Shown here one piece after another: positions 7,197 to 63,047 of a stretch of 64,000 bases of DNA (the stretch's first letter is position 1; every line of letters starts with the position of its first letter). Where the stretch lies: contig DSCM01000102.1 of the NCBI GenBank assembly GCA_011049115.1, forward strand, positions 174 to 64,173. Reading direction: 5' to 3'. Below the pieces are notes generated by a model. It was not told the DNA's origin. It made no database searches and worked only from the letters and a program-made list of their open reading frames with translations. Source of the DNA: Pseudomonadota bacterium. Lineage in GTDB: Bacteria; Desulfobacterota; Anaeroferrophillalia; Anaeroferrophillales; Tharpellaceae. The translations under genes and the position numbers were made by a program.

Positions 7197-8159
7197 ATGG
7201 AGCGCTTTTATTTGACGGTGGCCCGGGTGGCAAAAAAGACCCTGCACCATATGGTTGAACATCGCATCCCGATGCTGCCCGACATATATTCTCGCCATTT
7301 TTACAAATTTTTGTCCGCAAGTGACCATGACTCCCAGCAACTGATCGAGCAACAGCAACAGAACAGTTTCGACGAACTTATCACTCAGCAGGATCAGGGG
7401 TTCGAGTTGATGACTGAACTGGAACGCCTGATCGGCCGACTTGACCAAATCGCCGGCCAGCACATTGAACAACTCGACAACCATCTCCTGAAGATCAAGG
7501 TCACGGATAAATTTTCTGATCTATCCAAGCTGAAGGATGAGATTACGGCGGAGCTCAATCAAGTCATCACCAGTAACACTAAAATTCACGACCACATTGT
7601 AGACGCGCAGGAGACCGTTAAGCGCCTGCAGGATAAAATGCAGGAAGTCGCCGACATGGCAACCGTCGACGAATTGACCGGACTTTATAACCGCAGGGCT
7701 CTTTTCTGCCGCCTTTCCGAAGAGCTCTCGCGGGCAACCCGCTATGGGCATGGATTCAGCTTGCTGGTGATCGATATTGATGATTTCAAGGCAGTCAACG
7801 ATCAATTCGGTCACCAGACAGGGGATGGAATTCTGCGAGGACTGGGTACTTTCCTACGCCAGAATTTAAGAGATTCAGATTTTCCGGCTCGATGGGGAGG
7901 GGAGGAGTTCACCTGTCTGTTGCCGTCCACCGATTTAGAGCAGGCAGTTCAGGTTGGGAACAAAATCAGAAACCTTCTCTCGCAAAGTACCTTGACCAAC
8001 AAAAAGATAGCTATCTCGCTAAAAATTACGGTCAGCATTGGCGTTTCCTCGTTTTCTGCCGGTGACAACATTGACGGTTTGATTAAGCGTGCCGATGATG
8101 CTCTTTATTTAGCAAAAAGAAGAGGTAAGAACCAGATTATTACCGAGCGTGAAATCTAG
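7197..8159 (+). CDS. GGDEF-domain diguanylate cyclase with N-terminal coiled-coil region
   Basis: ELTGLYNRRALF ... RWGGEEF (GGEEF active site). No transmembrane segment seen. Confidence 0.8.
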   Translation: MERFYLTVARVAKKTLHHMVEHRIPMLPDIYSRHFYKFLSASDHDSQQLIEQQQQNSFDELITQQDQGFELMTELERLIGRLDQIAGQHIEQLDNHLLKIKVTDKFSDLSKLKDEITAELNQVITSNTKIHDHIVDAQETVKRLQDKMQEVADMATVDELTGLYNRRALFCRLSEELSRATRYGHGFSLLVIDIDDFKAVNDQFGHQTGDGILRGLGTFLRQNLRDSDFPARWGGEEFTCLLPSTDLEQAVQVGNKIRNLLSQSTLTNKKIAISLKITVSIGVSSFSAGDNIDGLIKRADDALYLAKRRGKNQIITEREI

Positions 8160-9079: not shown

Positions 9080-10159
9080 TCATCTAACCAGAACCGCACC
9101 ATAAGGGCATAGTTCCTGGCAGCAGTAACAACGAATACAGCGTTTATAGTCAATAACAATTCTACGATCCATCAGCTTCATGGCCTGAGCCGGGCAATGA
9201 ATGACGCAGACTTGACAAAGATGGCAGCGACTGATGGTAATTTTGGGTTTTGAAATAAAAAACTTACCCCAGAAACGCTGGCCGAAAAAGGTCGCCTGTC
9301 CGGTTCCGCGAGCAGGTTTGATGGCTGGCTCCAGGTATGATTCGGCAGCCGGTCCGACAGTTTCAATCCGCTTTTCGAGTATCCCCAGATTCAAAGCCTC
9401 TTGGCTGATTGGGGGCAAGCCAGGGAAACCAACCCATTTTTCCACCTGATAATCAAGTTCCGGGGCACCGTTGGACAGGGCCAGAAGACCACAGTTCCTG
9501 GGGGTTCCATTAGTTGGCCCCTCCCCTTCCATGCCCACAACCCCATCAAGAAAACTCCAGGTTGGAGGCATTTGCCGGTAGATATCAAGCAGCATACGGG
9601 CAAACAGTCGCCGGTCATGACCGGCGCGTAAATGCCATTGCAGTTTGCGCAGGCCCGGAACCAGGCCAAAAAGATTCTTCACCGCCAAGGTCGTACCCAT
9701 CATCACATGGGTTTTTAATTTAGGCAGATTGATAAGCTTATCGAAATCGCAAGCCCTGTCAGCCAAGGTTATTTCCTTAGCCACCAGACTATTTGTCAGC
9801 GCAACCTTCTTAGGCTCTTCAAAAGAAACGGTGGTGATGGCCAGCGCCCGCATCACCGGTTGCAGACCGCTTTTAAGCAAACATTTTTCGAGCGCACCGA
9901 AGCCTGGACTGTCACCGAGAAAAAGCCGGGCTCCGCAATCCTGCAGCACCATCGCGGTTGCCCGCAAAACTTCCGGATGGGTAGTCACAGCCAGTTCTGG
10001 GGCTTTGCCGATCACCAAGTTCGGTTTCAGAAGAACCCGGTCGCCTCGGCTTACAGTTCCTTCCAAACCTAACGTTGTGAGTCCCTGACGCAGAATATCG
10101 GCAATTATCCTGCTGTCATACTTTGCAGTAGTCGCTAAATACACCCTTCTTGTGTTCAT
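9080..10159 (-). CDS. DUF362-domain protein with C-terminal 2x[4Fe-4S] ferredoxin domain
   Basis: Two CxxCxxCxxxCP motifs at the C-terminus (CHLCQVCVIHCP, CIRCYCCQELCP). The N-terminal DUF362-like region is recognised only from general resemblance. Confidence 0.65.
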   Translation of the reverse strand: MNTRRVYLATTAKYDSRIIADILRQGLTTLGLEGTVSRGDRVLLKPNLVIGKAPELAVTTHPEVLRATAMVLQDCGARLFLGDSPGFGALEKCLLKSGLQPVMRALAITTVSFEEPKKVALTNSLVAKEITLADRACDFDKLINLPKLKTHVMMGTTLAVKNLFGLVPGLRKLQWHLRAGHDRRLFARMLLDIYRQMPPTWSFLDGVVGMEGEGPTNGTPRNCGLLALSNGAPELDYQVEKWVGFPGLPPISQEALNLGILEKRIETVGPAAESYLEPAIKPARGTGQATFFGQRFWGKFFISKPKITISRCHLCQVCVIHCPAQAMKLMDRRIVIDYKRCIRCYCCQELCPYGAVLVR

Positions 10160-12102: not shown

Positions 12103-12429
12103 ATGCTGGAAGTCAGTAGTGCCGCAGTCGAACAGATTGCCGGCTATTTCACCAATCGTGAACCGGAACCCATCAGAATATTTTTGAACGAAGGCGGCTG
12201 AGGTGGCCCGTCTCTTTCCATGGTCATGGATCAGGAACGCCCCAACGACGAAACCTACAATATCGAGAACTTCACATTCCTTGTCGATCGTGATTTCATG
12301 GAAAAGGTCAAACCGATCAAAGTTGATTTTAAAAACGTCGGTTTCACCATCTCTGCGAATCTTGACCTCAGTAAAATGGGGGGTGGAAGCTGTTCCGGCT
12401 GCGGATCCAGCAGCTCTTGCTGTTCGTAA
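12103..12429 (+). CDS. HesB/IscA-like Fe-S assembly-type selenoprotein (in-frame UGA = Sec at 12199-12201)
   Basis: ATG at 12103 with SD AAGGAGAG 7 nt upstream. The in-frame TGA at codon 33 is flanked by FLNEGG|U|GGPSLSMV, which aligns with E. coli IscA LGVRTSGC35SGMAYV. The reading frame continues unbroken into ORF 12220..12429, which ends in a Cys-rich tail (GSCSGCGSSSSCCS). A hairpin with a GGUC apical loop lies about 17-30 nt after the UGA. Confidence 0.65.
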
Positions 12430-23610: not shown

Positions 23611-24002
23611 CCATCATCGGAATCGGCAGCGATATGGTCAAGATCAGTCGAATCGAAGCCTTGCTCGAACGTTATCGGGAGCATTTTTCAGAGCGTGTTT
23701 TCACGGCCCGGGAAATAGACTATGCATCCCCGAAAAAACGGCCGGCGCTCCATCTGGCGGCCCGCTTTGCCGCCAAGGAAGCTTTCCTTAAAGCGTTGGG
23801 GCGCGGTCTCGGCGCCGGCCTGGAATGGCGGGACATCGAGGTCGTCAATAACGCCTTTGGTCGCCCGGAGCTTAAACTTTATAACAAGGCCGACAAACTT
23901 TGCAATGAACTCAATCGGGCGACCGCCTGGTTGAGCCTGACTCATGAGCAGGAATTCGCCTTGGCTTTTGTCGTGCTAGAGAAAACCGGAGGCCAGGCGT
24001 GA
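23607..24002 (+). CDS. acpS: Holo-[acyl-carrier-protein] synthase
   Basis: [21 protein letters not shown] overlap with the pdxJ stop. Confidence 0.85.
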
Positions 24003-46319: not shown

Positions 46320-47423
46320 TTATGTAAAGCGGCGCATGAACTGGCGATCAATGTAATCTTTGAGCCTGAAAGCGCTTTTGCCGGAACAGGTCAATCCCCA
46401 TTTGTACAGCAAGCCACTACCGTCGCCGAGATTGAAGATCTGCAGATAGTCGCCCCCGGGGGAAAAAGGGCGCAGTGGGCGGTTCTCCAGGGCAGCCCGC
46501 AGATTATAAAAAAGTACTGGATTTTGCCGCACGGCGTAGACCCCGACCTTATCAAGCGGCTGTTCCGTAAAAGCGATGCAGTCGCCCCCACCGAAAATTT
46601 CGGGACAAGACCAGGACTGAAGAAAACGGTTTACCGCAAGGCCTCCACCCCCTTGCACCAGCAGGCCGGTTTCCACCGCCGGAACCAGGGGCCGGACCCC
46701 GGTGGCAATCAGAACGGCATCGAAATTAATCCGTAAACCTGAGACAAGTTCAAGCTGATCGCCATAAACCGCGTTGACATGACCTTCTTCGAGCACTTCA
46801 ATAGCGCGTCCTTTCAGCGACGCTGTAACCCGCCGTCTGACGCCGACGGGAAAACGAGCCAGCAGTTTTCTGCCGGCGCAAAGCTTAAAACAGAGACGAT
46901 TACAACCCGCCTTATCCCCCAAACGCCGGAGATTTCCCACGATCTCGACCGCGGCCGGGCCGCCGCCGACCACGGCGACCGTCAGCTTGCGCTTTCGCAG
47001 GCGATCACGAATAAAGGTCCGGGCCGCGAGCAGACTTGCAATCGGCTTGACCATGAAGATATTGGCGGCTTTTTCCCTGATCATGCCATGCGGGACGTAG
47101 CTGCCGGTATTCAACGACAGGATATCGTAGCCCAGCGTTTCTCCGGATTCAAGCTCCAGTTCCCGTTTTTCGGCCGCGATGCGCACGACCCGCTCCTGAA
47201 TAAAACAACCGCCATTTTTCTCAACCTGGGCTTGGGTCGGGGAACGGATCTCCTCGGGCTCATAGAAACCGCCGAGCAGCCCCGGTCCCATACCGGAATA
47301 GTAATGTCAGGGCGAAGGCTGAATCACCGTTACCCGATGTCCGCGCCGGACAAACTCATGCAGACCGGCCAGGGTCTTAAGGTGAGCATACCCGCCGCCG
47401 ACCAGGACCAGATTTTTCGGCAT
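46320..47423 (-). CDS. FAD/NAD(P)-binding pyridine nucleotide-disulfide oxidoreductase (NDH-2/SQR-like) with an in-frame UGA (candidate Sec) at 47307-47309
   Basis: ATG at 47423 gives MPKNLVLVGGGYAHL...HRVTVIQPSP-[TGA]-HYYSGMGPGLLGG, which continues in frame into ORF 46320..47291 (second Rossmann motif VAVVGGGPAAVE). The FAD-binding fold spans the UGA, so the gene is either Sec-containing or broken. A UUCCGG-UAUGGGA-CCGGGG hairpin starts 8 nt after the UGA. Confidence 0.5.
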
Positions 47424-47441
47424 GGTCACTCCTTGGGCTGA

Positions 47442-49043
47442 TCAGGTCAGCGCCGCCGCCAGCAGGGTTTGCGTGTATGGATGAACCGGATGGTTAAACA
47501 CCTGCGCGGCCGCTCCGCTTTCAACGATTTTTCCCTCGTGCAGCACCATGATGCGATGGCACAGAGCCCTGATTACTTTAAGATCATGCGAGATAAAAAG
47601 ATAGGCCAGATTATGTTTTTCCTGCAGGGCCCGCAGCAGATCGACCACCTGGGCCTGAACCGACCGGTCCAGCGAGGACGTCGGTTCATCCAGAACCAGC
47701 AACCGGGGCTCGAGAACCAGGGCTCGGGCGATGGCGATCCGCTGCCGCTGGCCACCGGAAAACTCATGCGGATAACGGCGTAGACAGCTTTCGTCGAGAC
47801 CGACCTCGGCCAGCGTGGCGATCACCTTCCGCAAGCGTTGCCGGGAATCACCCAGACCATGCAGAGCCAGGCCTTCGCCGACGATTCGGTCAATCGTCAG
47901 GCGTGGGCTCAGGCTGGAAAAAGGATCCTGAAAAACAACCTGAAGATCACGTCTCAAGGCGCGCAGCGCCGCACCTTTCAATCCGGTGATATCACGGCCG
48001 GCGAAACAAATCTCACCTTTTGCCGCCAGCAGACGCAACAGGGCGAAGCCCAGGGTCGATTTTCCCGAGCCGCTCTCACCCACCAGGCCGAGACTTTCCC
48101 CGGCGCGAATGGCCAGCGAAACCCCGTCCACGGCTTTGACATGATCCCGAACCCTGCGCCAGAAACCTCGACGCAGGGGAAACCAGACCTTGAGATCACG
48201 GGCTTCGAGAAGGTAGTCGTTTCCCGTTTTCAAAGCCGGGGGCCGGCCGGAGGGTTCGGCGCATAACAGTTTTTGGGTGTAAACATGTTGCGGGCGGGCA
48301 AAAATCTCTCGACAGGTACCGGTTTCGACAATACGGCCACCGGTCATGACCGCGACCCGGTCGGCATAACGCCGGACCACTCCCAGATCGTGAGTAATCA
48401 ACAGCATCGCCATGCCCAGACGTTTATTCAGATCGCGCAACAGGTCGAGTACCTGGGCCTGCACAGTCACGTCCAGAGCCGTCGTCGGCTCGTCGGCAAT
48501 CAACAGGTCCGGCTGATTGGCTAAGGCCATGGCGATCATGACCCGCTGCCGCTGACCGCCGGAAAGCTGATGCGGATAGGCGTCAAGACGGCGAGCGGCG
48601 TCTTCGATACCCACCATTTCCAATAGTTCACGAACCTTTTGCCGCAGTTCCCGGCGGCCCTCGCCCCCCCCGTGCAGTCTCAGGCTTTCCCCGATCTGGC
48701 GGACAATCGGGTGCAGCGGATTAAGCGAGGTCATGGGTTCCTGAAAAATCATGCCGATTCGATTACCGCGCAGATTCCGCATGCGGCTTTCCGGCAGGGT
48801 AAAAATCTCCTGGCCCTTGAAAAAGATGTGCCCCTCACCGGGATGCCAGGCTTCCGGATAAGGCAGCAGGCGCAAAATCGAATGGGCGGTCACCGATTTG
48901 CCGGAACCGCTTTCGCCCACCAGGGCCACGATTTCATGTGGAGCAATCGCCATGGACAGTCGATCCACCGCCAAAAGCGGTTCCGGCCCGCGTCCGAAAG
49001 CCACGGAAAGATTCTTGATTTCAAGTAAAGGCTGAGTCATCAA
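47442..49043 (-). CDS. yejF: ABC transporter ATP-binding protein with duplicated ATPase domains (YejF-like)
   Basis: Two Walker A motifs (GESGSGKS twice), two LSGGQ signatures, 533 aa. Confidence 0.8.
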   Translation of the reverse strand: MMTQPLLEIKNLSVAFGRGPEPLLAVDRLSMAIAPHEIVALVGESGSGKSVTAHSILRLLPYPEAWHPGEGHIFFKGQEIFTLPESRMRNLRGNRIGMIFQEPMTSLNPLHPIVRQIGESLRLHGGGEGRRELRQKVRELLEMVGIEDAARRLDAYPHQLSGGQRQRVMIAMALANQPDLLIADEPTTALDVTVQAQVLDLLRDLNKRLGMAMLLITHDLGVVRRYADRVAVMTGGRIVETGTCREIFARPQHVYTQKLLCAEPSGRPPALKTGNDYLLEARDLKVWFPLRRGFWRRVRDHVKAVDGVSLAIRAGESLGLVGESGSGKSTLGFALLRLLAAKGEICFAGRDITGLKGAALRALRRDLQVVFQDPFSSLSPRLTIDRIVGEGLALHGLGDSRQRLRKVIATLAEVGLDESCLRRYPHEFSGGQRQRIAIARALVLEPRLLVLDEPTSSLDRSVQAQVVDLLRALQEKHNLAYLFISHDLKVIRALCHRIMVLHEGKIVESGAAAQVFNHPVHPYTQTLLAAALT

Positions 49044-56700: not shown

Positions 56701-59071
56701 GAGCCTGGTTGAGCTGAGTCCGCAGTTTATCATGTTCCTGATCGACGGCAAGACCGTGTAAGGCGAAAGCGAGGTCGCCGCAGAGTTCTGCGAACAGAGC
56801 CCGTTCCTCGACGTCGTCTGCCACCCCAACCGGCAGAGCGGCCACGAGGACGCCATACTCTTCGCCGGCATGGCGCAAAGCCCCGGCCAGGGCCGCCGTG
56901 TCGCCGTAGGTATGAGCCAGAGGACAAACATGGCAATCAGCTTTCGTACCATGCCCGAGCACAACCTCAGGTCCGGCCAGGGCCCGGCGGCAGCATTCCG
57001 GCCAGACGCCGTTTTCAAGCTCACTCCGCAACTTGGCAAAATTGTCGCCGACCCCCGCTGCGGCCACAACCCGCAGTTCCCCCAAGCCCTCGCGCAAGGC
57101 GACCCAGGCGGAATGATAACCGCGGGTTTCGACAAGGATTTCGCCGGCCCGGCGCAACAGAATTTCCCGGTTCTTCTCATGGATGATCAATTGGTTGACC
57201 TTGCGCAAGCCTCTTAACACGGCAGTTACATGCCGCAACCGCTCCTCCATTATTTTGCGCTCGCTGATATCCTCGCCGGCGCTCAGAACCCCGGTAATGG
57301 CGCCCGTCTCGTCCCGCAAGAGAGCATTATGCCAGGCAAGGGTGCGACGTTCGCCGTTACAGGCGATCACCTCATTTTCATGGTATTCAAAGGGCTCGAC
57401 CTTGCCCGCCACGATCTGCGAGAACAAAACGGACACCTCATCCTTGTTCTCGGCGGGCAGGCAGTTGTCAAACCAGTTGCGGCCTTTGAGTTCTGCCGCT
57501 CGCCGGCCCAGCAATTCGCAACCCTTACGGTTGATGAGACTGATATCGCCCTTCTCGTCCAGGGCGACAATCACAGTCTCAACCGTGTCCAGATAACTCT
57601 GGCTGCGGGCCAGCTCGGCCCGCAGCGTGCGCTCCGCCTCGCGCTCCCGGGTCTGGTCACGGAAGACCAGAACCACGCCGCTGATCACGCCCTTTTCATT
57701 CCGAATAGGTGCGCCGCTGTCGGCGATGGGCCGCTCCACCCCATCGCGGGCAACGAGCAGGGTGTGGTTGGCCAGGCCGACGATCGTTCCCTGACGCAGA
57801 ACCTTGGCCACCGGATCTTCGACCGGATTTCGGGTTTCCTCGTTGATAATGCGAAAAATCTCGGTCAGCGGGCGGCCGCAGGCCTCGGCCTGAGACCAGC
57901 CGGTAAGGTTTTCGGCTACCGGATTGAGCAGCTCCACCAGCCCCCGACCATCGGTGGCGATGACCGCGTCGCCGATGGCTTTTAAGGTCACGCGGTGGCG
58001 TTGTTCACCGGCCCGCAGCGCCGCCTCGGAAAAATACAAGGCCCGGTAGTAAGCCTTTTTGTTGCGTTGTCCCATAACCAATCCGAGCGCGCCGATGCAG
58101 GCGGCCAGCAACATAAACAAGGCCAGAATCAGGGCCGAGCGGAAACGCCATTCGGCAAAGACTTCCGCTTCATCGATTTTGGCGATCATGATCCAGGGAG
58201 AATCCGGAATGGGAAGAATGACCGCGACCACCTTGACGCCGCGATAATCTCTGCCCCGCACAAAGCCTTGCCGGCCCAATCCGGCCATGACGGCTGGAGT
58301 CTCGGTCCGGCTCAAAGGCAGCCGTAATTTAAGAGCGGTGTCGGAACGATGCCGCAGGTCGTTGAGAAATAAAACCTCGTCGCCGTCGCGTTGCACCAGC
58401 AGGGTTTCCGCGCTGTCGCTGGGCGTCGGCCAGAAACGGACCAGGGGATAGAGAAAGCTTGAGGCGTCATTGACCATGATCAACGCGGCCAGCGGCAAAA
58501 CGCTTAATCCGTTTTTATGATAAAGCGGCATGATCAGCGCAAGATGCGGAAACGTGTCGCTCGATTCCAGGTGGAGACTGGTAAATACGGGAGCATGTGC
58601 ACTCCAGGCCTGCGCCAGGGCGGACTCGAAGTCGCACCGGCAATCAGGAGCCGCGACCAGGCTGAGCAGCACTTGTCCTCCCGGGTCCGCCAGCATGATG
58701 TCTGCGTAGCCGTGGCGTTTCGCCAGGTTACGCAGACGCAGAAGCAGATCGCGGCGTTGTTCCTGACCTTGCCCGGCCATGAAAGAGGTCACGCTTTGCA
58801 GCAGAAAGAAATAATTTTGCAGGGCGGCGGCCGCTTGCAGCTGATTCTTGCGCCAGGCGGCGATCTGCTCCGCCTTAAGTCGCGCGATCGCGCCGAGATC
58901 ATTCTCGACCTTTTTTTCAACAGCTTGTTCCTGGGCCTGGTAGAACCAGAAACCGCCGAGCAGCAGGACGCCGAACGCCGACACCAGAAGAATCTTGAGT
59001 AAACGGAAGATAACCTTGAAATCAGGTTTCATGGCGTAAACCTCGCGCCCCCCGTCGCGGATCAAAGGCAT
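55571..59071 (-). CDS. Hybrid sensor histidine kinase paralog C, intact (periplasmic sensor-TM-PAS-PAS-GAF-HisKA-HATPase_c-REC, 1166 aa)
   Basis: Continuous ORF with HisKA H-box (AGGVAHDFNN), HATPase (GTGMGLSTVY) and receiver domain (DLLLTDVVMPEMNG). Segment 55571-56700 is roughly 85% identical in DNA to 49124-50245 of paralog A. Confidence 0.85.
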   Translation of the reverse strand: MPLIRDGGREVYAMKPDFKVIFRLLKILLVSAFGVLLLGGFWFYQAQEQAVEKKVENDLGAIARLKAEQIAAWRKNQLQAAAALQNYFFLLQSVTSFMAGQGQEQRRDLLLRLRNLAKRHGYADIMLADPGGQVLLSLVAAPDCRCDFESALAQAWSAHAPVFTSLHLESSDTFPHLALIMPLYHKNGLSVLPLAALIMVNDASSFLYPLVRFWPTPSDSAETLLVQRDGDEVLFLNDLRHRSDTALKLRLPLSRTETPAVMAGLGRQGFVRGRDYRGVKVVAVILPIPDSPWIMIAKIDEAEVFAEWRFRSALILALFMLLAACIGALGLVMGQRNKKAYYRALYFSEAALRAGEQRHRVTLKAIGDAVIATDGRGLVELLNPVAENLTGWSQAEACGRPLTEIFRIINEETRNPVEDPVAKVLRQGTIVGLANHTLLVARDGVERPIADSGAPIRNEKGVISGVVLVFRDQTREREAERTLRAELARSQSYLDTVETVIVALDEKGDISLINRKGCELLGRRAAELKGRNWFDNCLPAENKDEVSVLFSQIVAGKVEPFEYHENEVIACNGERRTLAWHNALLRDETGAITGVLSAGEDISERKIMEERLRHVTAVLRGLRKVNQLIIHEKNREILLRRAGEILVETRGYHSAWVALREGLGELRVVAAAGVGDNFAKLRSELENGVWPECCRRALAGPEVVLGHGTKADCHVCPLAHTYGDTAALAGALRHAGEEYGVLVAALPVGVADDVEERALFAELCGDLAFALHGLAVDQEHDKLRTQLNQAQKMEAVGRLAGGVAHDFNNILSVIIGYSELALNKVAAETPLHKDLQEILAAAARSRDIVRQLLAFARKENIAPQVLDLNAGVQNMLKILRRLIGEDLDLVWHPGNDLWPVLLDPSQLDQILANLCVNARDAISDVGKVSIETAKVSFDEAYCALHAEAAPGDFVLLAVSDDGCGMDREIVAQIFEPFFSTKGAGRGTGMGLSTVYGIVKQNQGFINVYSEPGEGTSFRIYLPRYMGAELPEKPVPVPEKIHPGAAETVLVVEDEFPILELVKTILTQLNYRVLTAPTPSDALRMAAEHDGEIDLLLTDVVMPEMNGRELSGRLQALYPKLKCLYMSGYTANVIVHRGVLDKGCQFIQKPFSTRDLAAKIRMVLADK

Positions 59072-60089
59072 CCCGCACCCCTTCCCCGATAAAAACCAAC
59101 AAACTCAGCATGACCGCCAGAATAAAAAAAGCCGACAGCCCCAGCCAGGGGGCATGCAGGTTGGCCTTGCCCTGGGCCAGCAGTTCTCCCAGCGAAGGCG
59201 AACCCGGGGGCATGCCGAAACCCAGAAAATCAAGCGAGGTTAAAGTTGTGATCGAAGCGTTGAGAATGAACGGCGCGAAGGTTACGGTCGCGACCACGGC
59301 ATTGGGCAGAATATGACGGAACATGATGGTCAAATCTCCGGCTCCCAGGGCGCGCGCGGCCCGGACATAATCGAGATTGCGGCCACGCAGGAATTCGGCC
59401 CGGACCATGCCAACCAGGCTCATCCAGGAAAAAAGCAGCATGATCCCGAGCAGCCACCAGAAATTCGGCTGAACAAAACTGGAAAGGATAATCAGCAGAT
59501 AAAGCACCGGCAAACCCGACCAGATTTCGATCAAGCGTTGGCCGAACAAATCGATGTAGCCGCCATAATAGCCTTGCAGCGCTCCGGCCGTAATCCCGAT
59601 CACGGAGCCGACCAGAGTCAGGCAAAGACCGAAGAAGACCGAAATGCGGAAACCATACAACAGGCGAGCAAAAACATCGCGTCCCTGGTCATCGGTTCCG
59701 AGCCAGTTGGCCGCCGACGGCGGCGACGGGGCCGGTTGCATGAGATTATAATTGATCGTGTCATAATGATAGCGCACCGGCGGCCAGATAACCAGGCCGC
59801 CGCCCGCGCGAATCAACTCCGCTAGATAAGGATCACGATAATCAGCCGCGGTCGCGAACTCCCCGCCGAAATCGGTCTCGGCGTAGTCCCGCATGACCGG
59901 CGCATACAGACGGCCGCCGTACAGAATCAGCAAGGGACGGTCATTGGCGATCACTTCCGCGCCCAGGCTGAGCCCGAAAAGCAGGAGAAAAATCCAGAGT
60001 GACCAGTAGCCCCGCCGGTTGGCCCGGAAACGTTGCCAGCGGCGGCGCTGAAGCGGATGGGAAAAAAAATCAGGCGAAAACAGGCTCAT
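59022..60089 (-). CDS. yejE: Peptide ABC transporter permease (YejE/DppC-like)
   Basis: Six transmembrane helices and a binding-protein-dependent permease EAA-like loop. ATGA overlap with yejB. Confidence 0.8.
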
Positions 60090-61186
60090 GCATCTCGTTC
60101 CGCAAAATCGATTCGAGGATCAACCACCATATAACAGAGGTCGCTGATCAGATTGGTAAGCAGACCCAGCAGCGTGAAAAGATAAAGGGTCGCGAACATC
60201 ACCGGATAGTCCCGACCGATCGTGGCCTCGAAACCCAGCAGCCCGAGCCCGTCGAGGGAAAAGATCACCTCGATCAACAGGGAGCCGGCAAAAAACATGC
60301 TGATGAAAGCGGCCGGGAAACCCGCGATGATAATCAGCATCGCGTTCCGGAAAACATGACCGTAAAGCACTTCCTTGAAACTCAAACCCTTGGCGCGAGC
60401 CGTGATGACGTATTGCTTGCCGATTTCATCCAGAAACGAATTTTTGGTAAGCATGGTCAGGGTCGCGAAACCGCCGATCACCATGGCGGTCACGGGCAGG
60501 GCGAGATGGTGAAAATAGTCGATAACCTTGCCCCCCGGACTGAGATTGGCAAAATTGTCGGAGACCAGTCCCCGCAGCGGAAACCAGCTAAGATAGCTGC
60601 CGCCGGCGAACAGCACGACCAGCAGGACCGCGAACAGAAAAACCGGAATCGCATTGCCGATGATGATTATGGTACTCGACCAGATATCGAAACGGCTGCC
60701 GTGTCGCACCGCCTTGGCGATGCCCAGGGGAATCGAAACCAGGTAAATAATCAACGTGCTCCAGACCCCGAGAGAAATCGAAACCGGCATCTTTTCAATG
60801 AGCAGTTCAACCACTCGTTTATTGCGATAAAAACTTTCTCCGAAATCAAAACAAAGATAATCCCGAAGCAACTTCAGATAACGTTTATGGAGGGGCTGGT
60901 CAAAACCGTAGAGTTTCTCGATTTCTGCGACTAGTTCGGGATCGAGCCCCTGAGCTCCGCGATAGCTCCCCCGATCGGCCGAATTCTGCCCGGCGCGGCT
61001 TTTCAGCTCGGCGTTTTCACTCCCGGCAACCCGGACCGTGGCACTCTCGCCACTTTTCTCCAGGCGGGCGACCAGCTGCTCCACCGGACCGCCGGGAGCG
61101 GCCTGAATAATAAAGAAATTAATCGTCAGGATGCCGATCAGGGTCGGGATAATCAGCAGCAGCCGGCGAATGGTATAGGCAAACAT
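60086..61186 (-). CDS. yejB: Peptide ABC transporter permease (YejB/DppB-like)
   Basis: Permease fold and the operon context. Confidence 0.8.
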
Positions 61187-61187
61187 T

Positions 61188-63047
61188 TCAGGGTTGCAAA
61201 CTCCACCAGGTCATCAGCCCGAGACCGTAGCGGGGCACGGTCTCGGGCTGGGCGAATTTATTCCAGTAGGCGATGCGAAAGGTGCTGATATGCCAGTGCG
61301 GCAGCACGTAAAACCCCCACTGCAACACTCGGTCCAGGGCCCGCACCCGGTTAACCAGACTGCGTCGATCTTCAGCCTGAATCAGCGCTTCAACCAGAGC
61401 GTCGACCACCGGATCCTTGATCCCGGCCAGGTTGCGACTGCCGAAAACCTCGGCAGCCTCCGAATGCCAGTAGTTGCGTTGTTCGTTGCCGGGAGAAAGG
61501 GACTGACCAAAACTCCAGACGACCATATCAAAATCAAATTCGCGCACGCGATTAAGATACTGAGCCGTATCAATGACCCGGACCACGGTTTCAATACCGA
61601 GGCGCTCAAGATTTTTTTTAAAAGGCAGGACAATCCGCTCAAAGGCGGGAGAGGTCAACATGATCTCAAAGACAAAAGGTTTGCCCTTTTGATCGACCAG
61701 TTTACGATCGACAACCCGCCAGCCGGCAAGTTCCAGCAGGGCCGCAGCCTGCCTGAGATTGGCCCGCAGGGACGCCGGAGGCGTGGTGGTCGGCAGCCGA
61801 TAGCTGTCGCTAAAAACCTCGGCCGGCAGTTGCGGCCGAAAAGGCTCAAGCAGGGCCATTTCGGCCGCTGACGGCGGACCGACCGCGGCCAATTCGGAAT
61901 TGCTGAAATAACTCTGCGTGCGCTGATATTGATTGTAAAAGAGATTCTTGTTACTCCACTCAAAATCAAAGGCGTAAATCAGAGCTTCACGAACCCGGCG
62001 ATCGGCAAACAACGACCGCCGGGTATTGAAAACAAAACCCTGCATGCCCTGGGGAATCTCATGGGCGATCTCTTTTTTTATAATCCTGCCGCTATCAAAT
62101 TGCGGCCCCTGATAAAGAGTGGCCCAGTTTTTGGAAACATTTTCGTGGCGAAAATCGTATTCTCCGGCCTTGAAAGCCTCCAGGGCGACGGTGGCGTCGC
62201 GGTAATAGTCAAAAACCAGAAGATCGAAATTATAGCGTCCCGAAGTAACCGGCAGATCCGCCCCCCAATAATCCTTGACCCTTTCATAGGTGACCGACTT
62301 GCCGGGAACAAAGTCTTTCAGACGATAAGGACCGCTGCCGAGCGGCACCGTCAGATCGGCCACGTCAAATTCCTTGTCCCGCCAGAAATGTCGGGGCAGA
62401 ATCTCTAGCTGGCCGACGATCAGGGGCAATTCTGAGTTTTTGCCATCCTTGAAAGTGAATTTGACCCGGTGTTGGTCCAGGGCTGCGACGCCGGTTACGT
62501 CGGCGTAATAGCGCTTGTACATGGGTTGACCTTTTTGCAGCAGCAATTCAAAGGTAAAAACCACGTCTTCGGCCGTCACCGGTGAACCGTCATGAAAGCG
62601 GGCTTGCGGACGCAGGTCAAAAATCACGAAACTGCGGTCCGCAGCCAGCTCAACCTTTTCCGCCAGCAGACCGTACTGACTGAAAGGTTCATCCTCGGCC
62701 GCGGCCATCAGGGTATCGTAAATCATACCGATACCGGCCGCCGCCACCCCTTTCAGAATATGGTCATTGAAGCTGTCAAAGGTGCCGATCACCGCCTGGC
62801 ACAGCCGGCCGCCTTTAGGCGCCTTCGGGTTGACGTAGGTAAAATGGGTGAATTCAGGGCCATATTTGAGTTCGCCATGCAGAGCCAGACCATGACTGGT
62901 ACTGGTGGCCGCGGCCGCGCTCAGACGCGGCCCGGACGGAAAAAGCCAGGACAACAGCCCGATAAAAAAACCTCCCCAAACCAACACTTTTCGCTTGACC
63001 GGCACCGGCAACTCCATTCCAAATAAAACAAAAAGATAAGCCGTCAA
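61188..63047 (-). CDS. yejA: Extracellular solute-binding protein family 5 (YejA-like periplasmic peptide-binding protein)
   Basis: 619 aa with a signal peptide and SBP_bac_5 architecture. Heads the yejA-B-E gene string. Confidence 0.8.

Follow-up and report, generated by a model that had tools for sequence, protein, structure and literature searches.

An in-frame UGA at codon 39 of a Desulfobacterota-type FAD-dependent oxidoreductase gene is an ordinary nonsense change or possible sequencing error, not a selenocysteine codon

Comparison of near-identical assemblies revealed that the TGA that interrupts a pyridine nucleotide-disulfide oxidoreductase gene in a 64,000-nucleotide stretch of DNA (the whole stretch analyzed, hereafter the window) is an ordinary nonsense single-nucleotide variant (SNV) or possible sequencing error. 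We hold with high confidence that this TGA, at codon 39, is a very recent substitution in an otherwise intact gene, private to the source population or assembly. A preliminary description of this DNA had left two readings side by side, that the UGA is read as selenocysteine (Sec) or that the gene is inactivated. The Sec reading falls away by the criteria which that description had set for it, with Trp in three near-identical sibling assemblies and a TGA in none of 80 related species, while the second reading stands, as a nonsense change or sequencing error reached from TGG by a single G-to-A step. This outcome is mainly negative in that it removes a false selenoprotein candidate, and it presents the comparison of near-identical assemblies as a quick way to settle in-frame-UGA calls: here, the genuine Sec codon of a HesB-like gene is invariant in the siblings that cover it, whereas the spurious UGA39 is a private SNV.

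One oxidoreductase gene interrupted by one stop

Translation of the minus strand reproduced the gene layout that had been proposed for this locus (Table 1). The oxidoreductase starts at ATG 47423, 18 nt past the TGA stop of a yejF-like ABC ATPase gene (47442..49043), and opens with a Rossmann-type N-terminal peptide (MPKNLVLVGGGYAH...VTVIQPSP) that reads in full, from ATG 47423 to the premature TGA, MPKNLVLVGGGYAHLKTLAGLHEFVRRGHRVTVIQPSP. Beyond the TGA at 47309..47307 the same frame continues as HYYSGMGPGLLGG..., with the second dinucleotide motif (VAVVGGGPAAVE) downstream of the stop, and ends at TAA 46322..46320, such that the fused translation holds both the GGGYAH and the GGGPAA motif. 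The oxidoreductase is one gene split by one stop after codon 38. That the two halves form a single oxidoreductase, as the preliminary description had it, follows because Pfam and NCBIfam matches span the fused 367-codon frame. Specifically, Pfam PF07992 (Pyr_redox_2) matched residues 4-286 with 85.6 bits (cutoff 26.1), with a nested PF00070 match (26.8 against a cutoff of 22), and the best-scoring NCBIfam family, TIGR03169 (Nterm_to_SelD), aligned residues 4-366 to positions 1-365 of its 365-position profile (E = 1e-72). The TIGR03169 score of 245.3 bits, from this full-length alignment, lies below the curated cutoff of 310, and judged by these profile matches the protein belongs to a subfamily related to TIGR03169 and is not a certified member. 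For annotation, we propose describing the gene as an FAD-dependent oxidoreductase of 367 aa whose frame has a premature stop in this assembly, as a pseudogene or through a possible sequencing error, and entering it neither as a selenoprotein nor as a 323-aa protein.

Table 1. Coordinates of the features discussed, numbered along the window.
Feature	Position	Strand	Basis or remark
FAD/NAD(P) pyridine-nucleotide-disulfide oxidoreductase gene, 367 codons, TIGR03169-like	46320..47423	-	translation; Pfam and NCBIfam matches across the fused frame; intact allele P0121 in siblings
Premature stop TGA, codon 39	47307..47309	-	base-by-base comparison with sibling contigs L001, L002, L007, L008 and L009
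N-terminal 38 codons, beta1-alphaA-beta2 FAD-binding Rossmann segment (GGGYAH ... VTVIQPSP)	47310..47423	-	translation; homolog alignment
Downstream 323-codon ORF P0001 as predicted by gene finders	46320..47291	-	start is Met45 of the intact protein; without the FAD Rossmann motif
Short hairpin UUCCGGU-AUGGG-ACCGGGG over the YSGMGPG codons	47279..47298	-	folding; background distributions
IscA/HesB-family selenoprotein gene	12103..12429	+	TGA 12199..12201; NF038090 IscA_HesB_Se

The oxidoreductase gene lies between that of the yejF-like ABC ATPase (upstream) and that of a P-type cation ATPase (downstream), and its 18-nt spacing from the yejF-like gene makes those two candidates for possible co-transcription. 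The yejF-like double ABC ATPase itself, on the minus strand, lies some 10 kb from its presumptive partners at 59022..63047 of the same strand (a yejA-like SBP_bac_5 binding protein and two BPD_transp_1 permeases), with PAS/GAF sensor kinase and response-regulator genes in between.

Codon 39 in sibling assemblies and related species

To compare the window with its closest counterparts, we tiled its entire length with contigs of what is essentially one organism, taken from three independent assemblies (JGI 3300022547, ENA ERZ27245514 and ENA ERZ1742330; hereafter siblings). This comparison revealed 14 substitutions and no indels over 64,000 bases, an identity of about 99.98%. One of the 14 falls at 47307, where the coding strand carries A in the window (T on the plus strand) and G in 3/3 siblings, which makes the codon TGA in the former and TGG (Trp39) in the latter. 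None of the other 13 lies inside the oxidoreductase gene or creates a stop. All three siblings encode, in the gene order of the window, a 367-aa protein (P0121) that shares a 90% cluster with the truncated 323-aa product of the window (P0001) and that equals the fused window translation except for Trp at residue 39 (QPSPWHYYSGMGPG).

The other 13 differences comprise 7 synonymous, 4 missense and 2 intergenic changes. Synonymous changes thus make up 7 of the 12 coding SNVs against 32% expected at random (P = 0.056), an excess that points to the window contig being a genuine strain variant but at this P value is only suggestive. A nonsense change has a chance of about 26% among 12 random coding SNVs, so its occurrence here leaves nothing special to explain. 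Along the window the differences are unevenly placed, with four of them within 256 nt (7649-7905) and further pairs, 3-40 nt apart, at 23893/23912, 27033/27072, 42750/42753 and 52746/52786, and with 47307 and 28323 as the only singletons. This clustering is suggestive of short tracts, from recombination or haplotypes, rather than of mutations that arose independently. G or C in the window stands against A or T in the siblings at 10 of the 14 differing positions.

Besides that of the window, no contig on record encodes the truncated 323-aa product, which leaves the TGA allele without a second observation. Exact IUPAC patterns run against the JGI metagenome contig collection gave 0 matches for the TGA allele and also 0 for the known TGG allele, and since even the latter was unmatched, that collection does not hold this species.

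Evaluating codon 39 across more distant relatives, we found the column to be aromatic, which bears out the earlier remark that the UGA sits just ahead of an H-Y-Y motif at a position that does not look Cys-bearing. A database search returned more than 5,000 relatives, the best 119 of which were used for the column alignment; these were full-length proteins of about 370 aa, 50-60% identical to the oxidoreductase, from Thermodesulfobacteriota/Desulfobacterota metagenome-assembled genomes (MAGs). Among these best 119 the UGA column held Tyr 70 times, His 38, Phe 9, Arg once, Thr once and Cys never, and thus Tyr, His or Phe in 117/119. We also read codon 39 straight from the DNA of 80 loci of different species, anchored on the invariant HYYSGMGP immediately after it, so that gene calling could not mask in-frame stops. 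These readings gave TAC/TAT at 52 loci, CAC/CAT at 18, TTT/TTC at 8, AAT at one (L064) and TGT at one (L030), which amounts to Tyr, His or Phe in 78/80 other species, with TGA at codon 39 in 0/80. Both the check for a Cys column and the search for a conserved TGA, which would have favored Sec, therefore came out against it. The closest solved structure is that of the NDH-2-like YjlD (PDB 9pxk; E = 7e-23 for residues 1-324); there the counterpart of the Trp39 column is a Thr, located in the loop that follows strand beta-2 of the FAD Rossmann fold. By these alignments, the codon 39 column is a structural position with a preference for aromatic residues, not a redox cysteine. Comparison at the sequence level establishes Trp as the wild-type residue of the species at codon 39 and the stop as the derived state, the latter because the outgroups all carry sense codons.

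The sole Cys codon among the 80 loci lies at L030:3106-3108, in an uncultured Desulfobulbia MAG (CAYSFY010000241.1; APSPCHYYSGMGPG), and is an isolated replacement within an otherwise aromatic column.

Origin and consequences of the stop codon

The event is, with high confidence, a very recent single-base substitution that turned TGG into TGA (coding-strand G to A), confined to the source population or assembly. An intact conspecific allele and a single substitution that creates the stop, two marks of a recent nonsense allele, were both found, and outside codon 39 the gene is identical to the functional allele, so the event has had no time to leave visible decay. Translation would mostly end after 38 residues, so that only the first Rossmann beta-alpha-beta unit would be made, and the allele would be null or strongly reduced in function. 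Were translation to restart at Met45 (ATG 47291), the product would be without the GxGxxG FAD-binding segment and presumably inactive.

Whether the change sits in the organism or only in the assembly is a separate matter, and here we consider it probable, at a level clearly below our confidence in the substitution as such, that the sampled population truly carries the TGA as an allele. The alternative, to which we give a minor though appreciable share, is an assembly or base-call artefact, in which the organism has TGG and the A at 47307 stems from a consensus error or a minor-variant path. Such an artefact would fit the position of 47307 as an isolated singleton transition with the nearest other SNV 4.5 kb away, while most other differences are closely grouped, as real haplotype differences typically are, and it would fit the presence of the TGA allele on one contig only, with TGG in three other assemblies. 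Against it, the contig has no indels relative to the siblings over 64 kb and its other 13 differences resemble real variation, being mostly synonymous; this indel and SNV pattern would indicate a high-quality consensus with rare substitution errors.

A real allele need not be a complete knock-out. In E. coli, a C after UGA makes for the weakest termination signal, and the premature stop of the oxidoreductase happens to lie in such a TGA-C context. This context is rare among true stops of the window (2/21 TGA-terminated genes), a rarity consistent with avoidance of weak termination. The tRNA-Trp(CCA) of E. coli pairs with UGA by wobble, and in an attenuated-RF2 strain Trp made up ~80% of the residues inserted at UGA (PMC11903333). 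Near-cognate read-through by tRNA-Trp at UGA39 would insert Trp and hence yield a low level of exactly the wild-type protein. We think it doubtful, if conceivable, that the TGA allele is real, segregating and not null in this manner, with read-through reinserting Trp to give a few percent of wild-type enzyme and thereby a 'self-correcting' knock-down. Occasional Sec insertion at the aromatic position via the fortuitous hairpin would be far less likely than such Trp read-through.

Recoding of UGA39 and comparison with known systems

The window does hold a genuine selenoprotein gene, of the IscA/HesB family, and this gene provides the yardstick for UGA39. It scored 100.4 bits against NF038090 (IscA_HesB_Se; cutoff 85), reads ...FLNEGG-U-GGPSLSM... 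at its TGA, and has a CCAU-GGUC-AUGG hairpin ~17 nt downstream of that TGA. Gene callers split it into ORFs of 32 and 69 aa, and it is probably the gene that the preliminary description counted as its first in-frame UGA. Its TGA region is identical in both sibling contigs that cover it (L003 and L004), and because of this selenoprotein gene with its strain-conserved TGA, it is very probable that the organism decodes Sec. No selA, selB, selC, selD or tRNA gene was found within the 64-kb window, and the IscA_HesB_Se gene lends the machinery indirect support. The HesB-like gene is the only real Sec candidate in the window. Other split ORF pairs (at 9080, 26433, 59105, 60120 and elsewhere) are adjacent, separate genes in the same frame and not recoding candidates.

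A Sec reading of UGA39 would have it recoded by SelB via an adjoining SECIS hairpin, giving a new selenoprotein form of pyridine nucleotide-disulfide oxidoreductase. A very probably Sec-using organism, the lone TGT among 80 relatives, the name of the best NCBIfam family (Nterm_to_SelD) and a curated model (NF049943) for a selenoprotein subtype of the related type III SQR could all be cited for it, as could the hairpin that the preliminary description had called SECIS-like. This hairpin, UUCCGGU-AUGGG-ACCGGGG with a 7-bp stem, does exist and begins 8-9 nt past UGA39, but our folding and background controls found no SECIS-specific structure there and nothing that sets it apart. The 83 nt from UGA39 onward fold no better than their dinucleotide shuffles (z = -1.0). 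When the 42-nt segments that follow the 186 Trp codons of the window's genes were folded, 12% reached equal or better energy than the segment after UGA39, and 22% of the same segments in 80 Tyr/His/Phe homologs folded at least as stably. Bacterial SECIS elements have a G in the first two loop positions and a bulged U in the stem; here the loop, AUGGG, starts with A and U, and a bulged U is missing from the stem. The TGG alleles have the identical sequence downstream of codon 39, which means that hairpin and UGA39 did not evolve together, and because these alleles and the background folds match it, the hairpin is a by-product of the conserved YSGMGPG codons. Rfam, applied to the whole window at the gathering threshold and permissively to 47150..47450, gave no SECIS match, and because the known Sec gene, as positive control, also returned nothing relevant, we give Rfam no weight for bacterial SECIS.

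Of four properties that define a selenoprotein gene, UGA39 lacked three, namely a Cys/Sec column, a conserved UGA and a distinctive SECIS, while the fourth, Sec-decoding machinery in the organism, has only the indirect support just described. Strains identical elsewhere in the gene have Trp (TGG), the column is aromatic (Y/H/F/W, with Thr in YjlD) and TGA occurs in no relative, in contrast to the HesB-like Sec codon, which is the same in both covering siblings. With homolog column, sibling TGG and hairpin controls all against it, we reject UGA39 as a Sec codon and consider that reading extremely improbable.

Decoding of UGA as Trp, genome-wide or programmed at codon 39, is hardly credible either: the wild-type residue is Trp, the weak UGA-C context is rare among real stops and bacterial tRNA-Trp variants able to read UGA are known (PMC13092985), but TGA ends 21/49 window genes, including the one directly upstream of the oxidoreductase, comparison with the siblings shows TGA at no further Trp position of the window, and siblings that use TGG leave nothing programmed or conserved, such that a UGA=Trp code is rejected because TGA is an ordinary stop here.

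Set among known systems, the interrupted oxidoreductase shares with TIGR03169 a two-dinucleotide-fold architecture and a similar length, and it has no extra domain. TIGR03169 proteins are often fused to SelD. Unlike what that family's name implies, the protein here is a stand-alone one of 367 aa; it has neither a SelD fusion nor a SelD neighborhood, with no sel gene among the annotated genes of the window, and it is part of a separate Desulfobacterota clade that is well populated and keeps the motif HYYSGMGPG invariant. This clade (the window gene and loci L010-L089) is widespread among Desulfobacterota, has many invariant residues and forms a conserved family below the TIGR03169 cutoff. With type II NADH dehydrogenase-like flavoproteins (YjlD), FSP1/AIFM2 and SQR relatives the oxidoreductase has the Pyr_redox_2 fold in common, at low sequence similarity.

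SECIS-decoded bacterial selenoproteins, such as the NF038090 member in the window, resemble the case in having an in-frame UGA within a conserved gene of a Sec-using organism; the oxidoreductase differs in that its column is not Cys, its UGA is private among near-identical strains and its hairpin is no specific SECIS. The match is with an ordinary premature-stop polymorphism or nascent pseudogene, with which it shares a single transition from sense to stop, a gene otherwise undamaged and intact conspecifics. From these it differs in nothing of kind, the one nuance being that read-through by tRNA-Trp would restore the wild-type residue.
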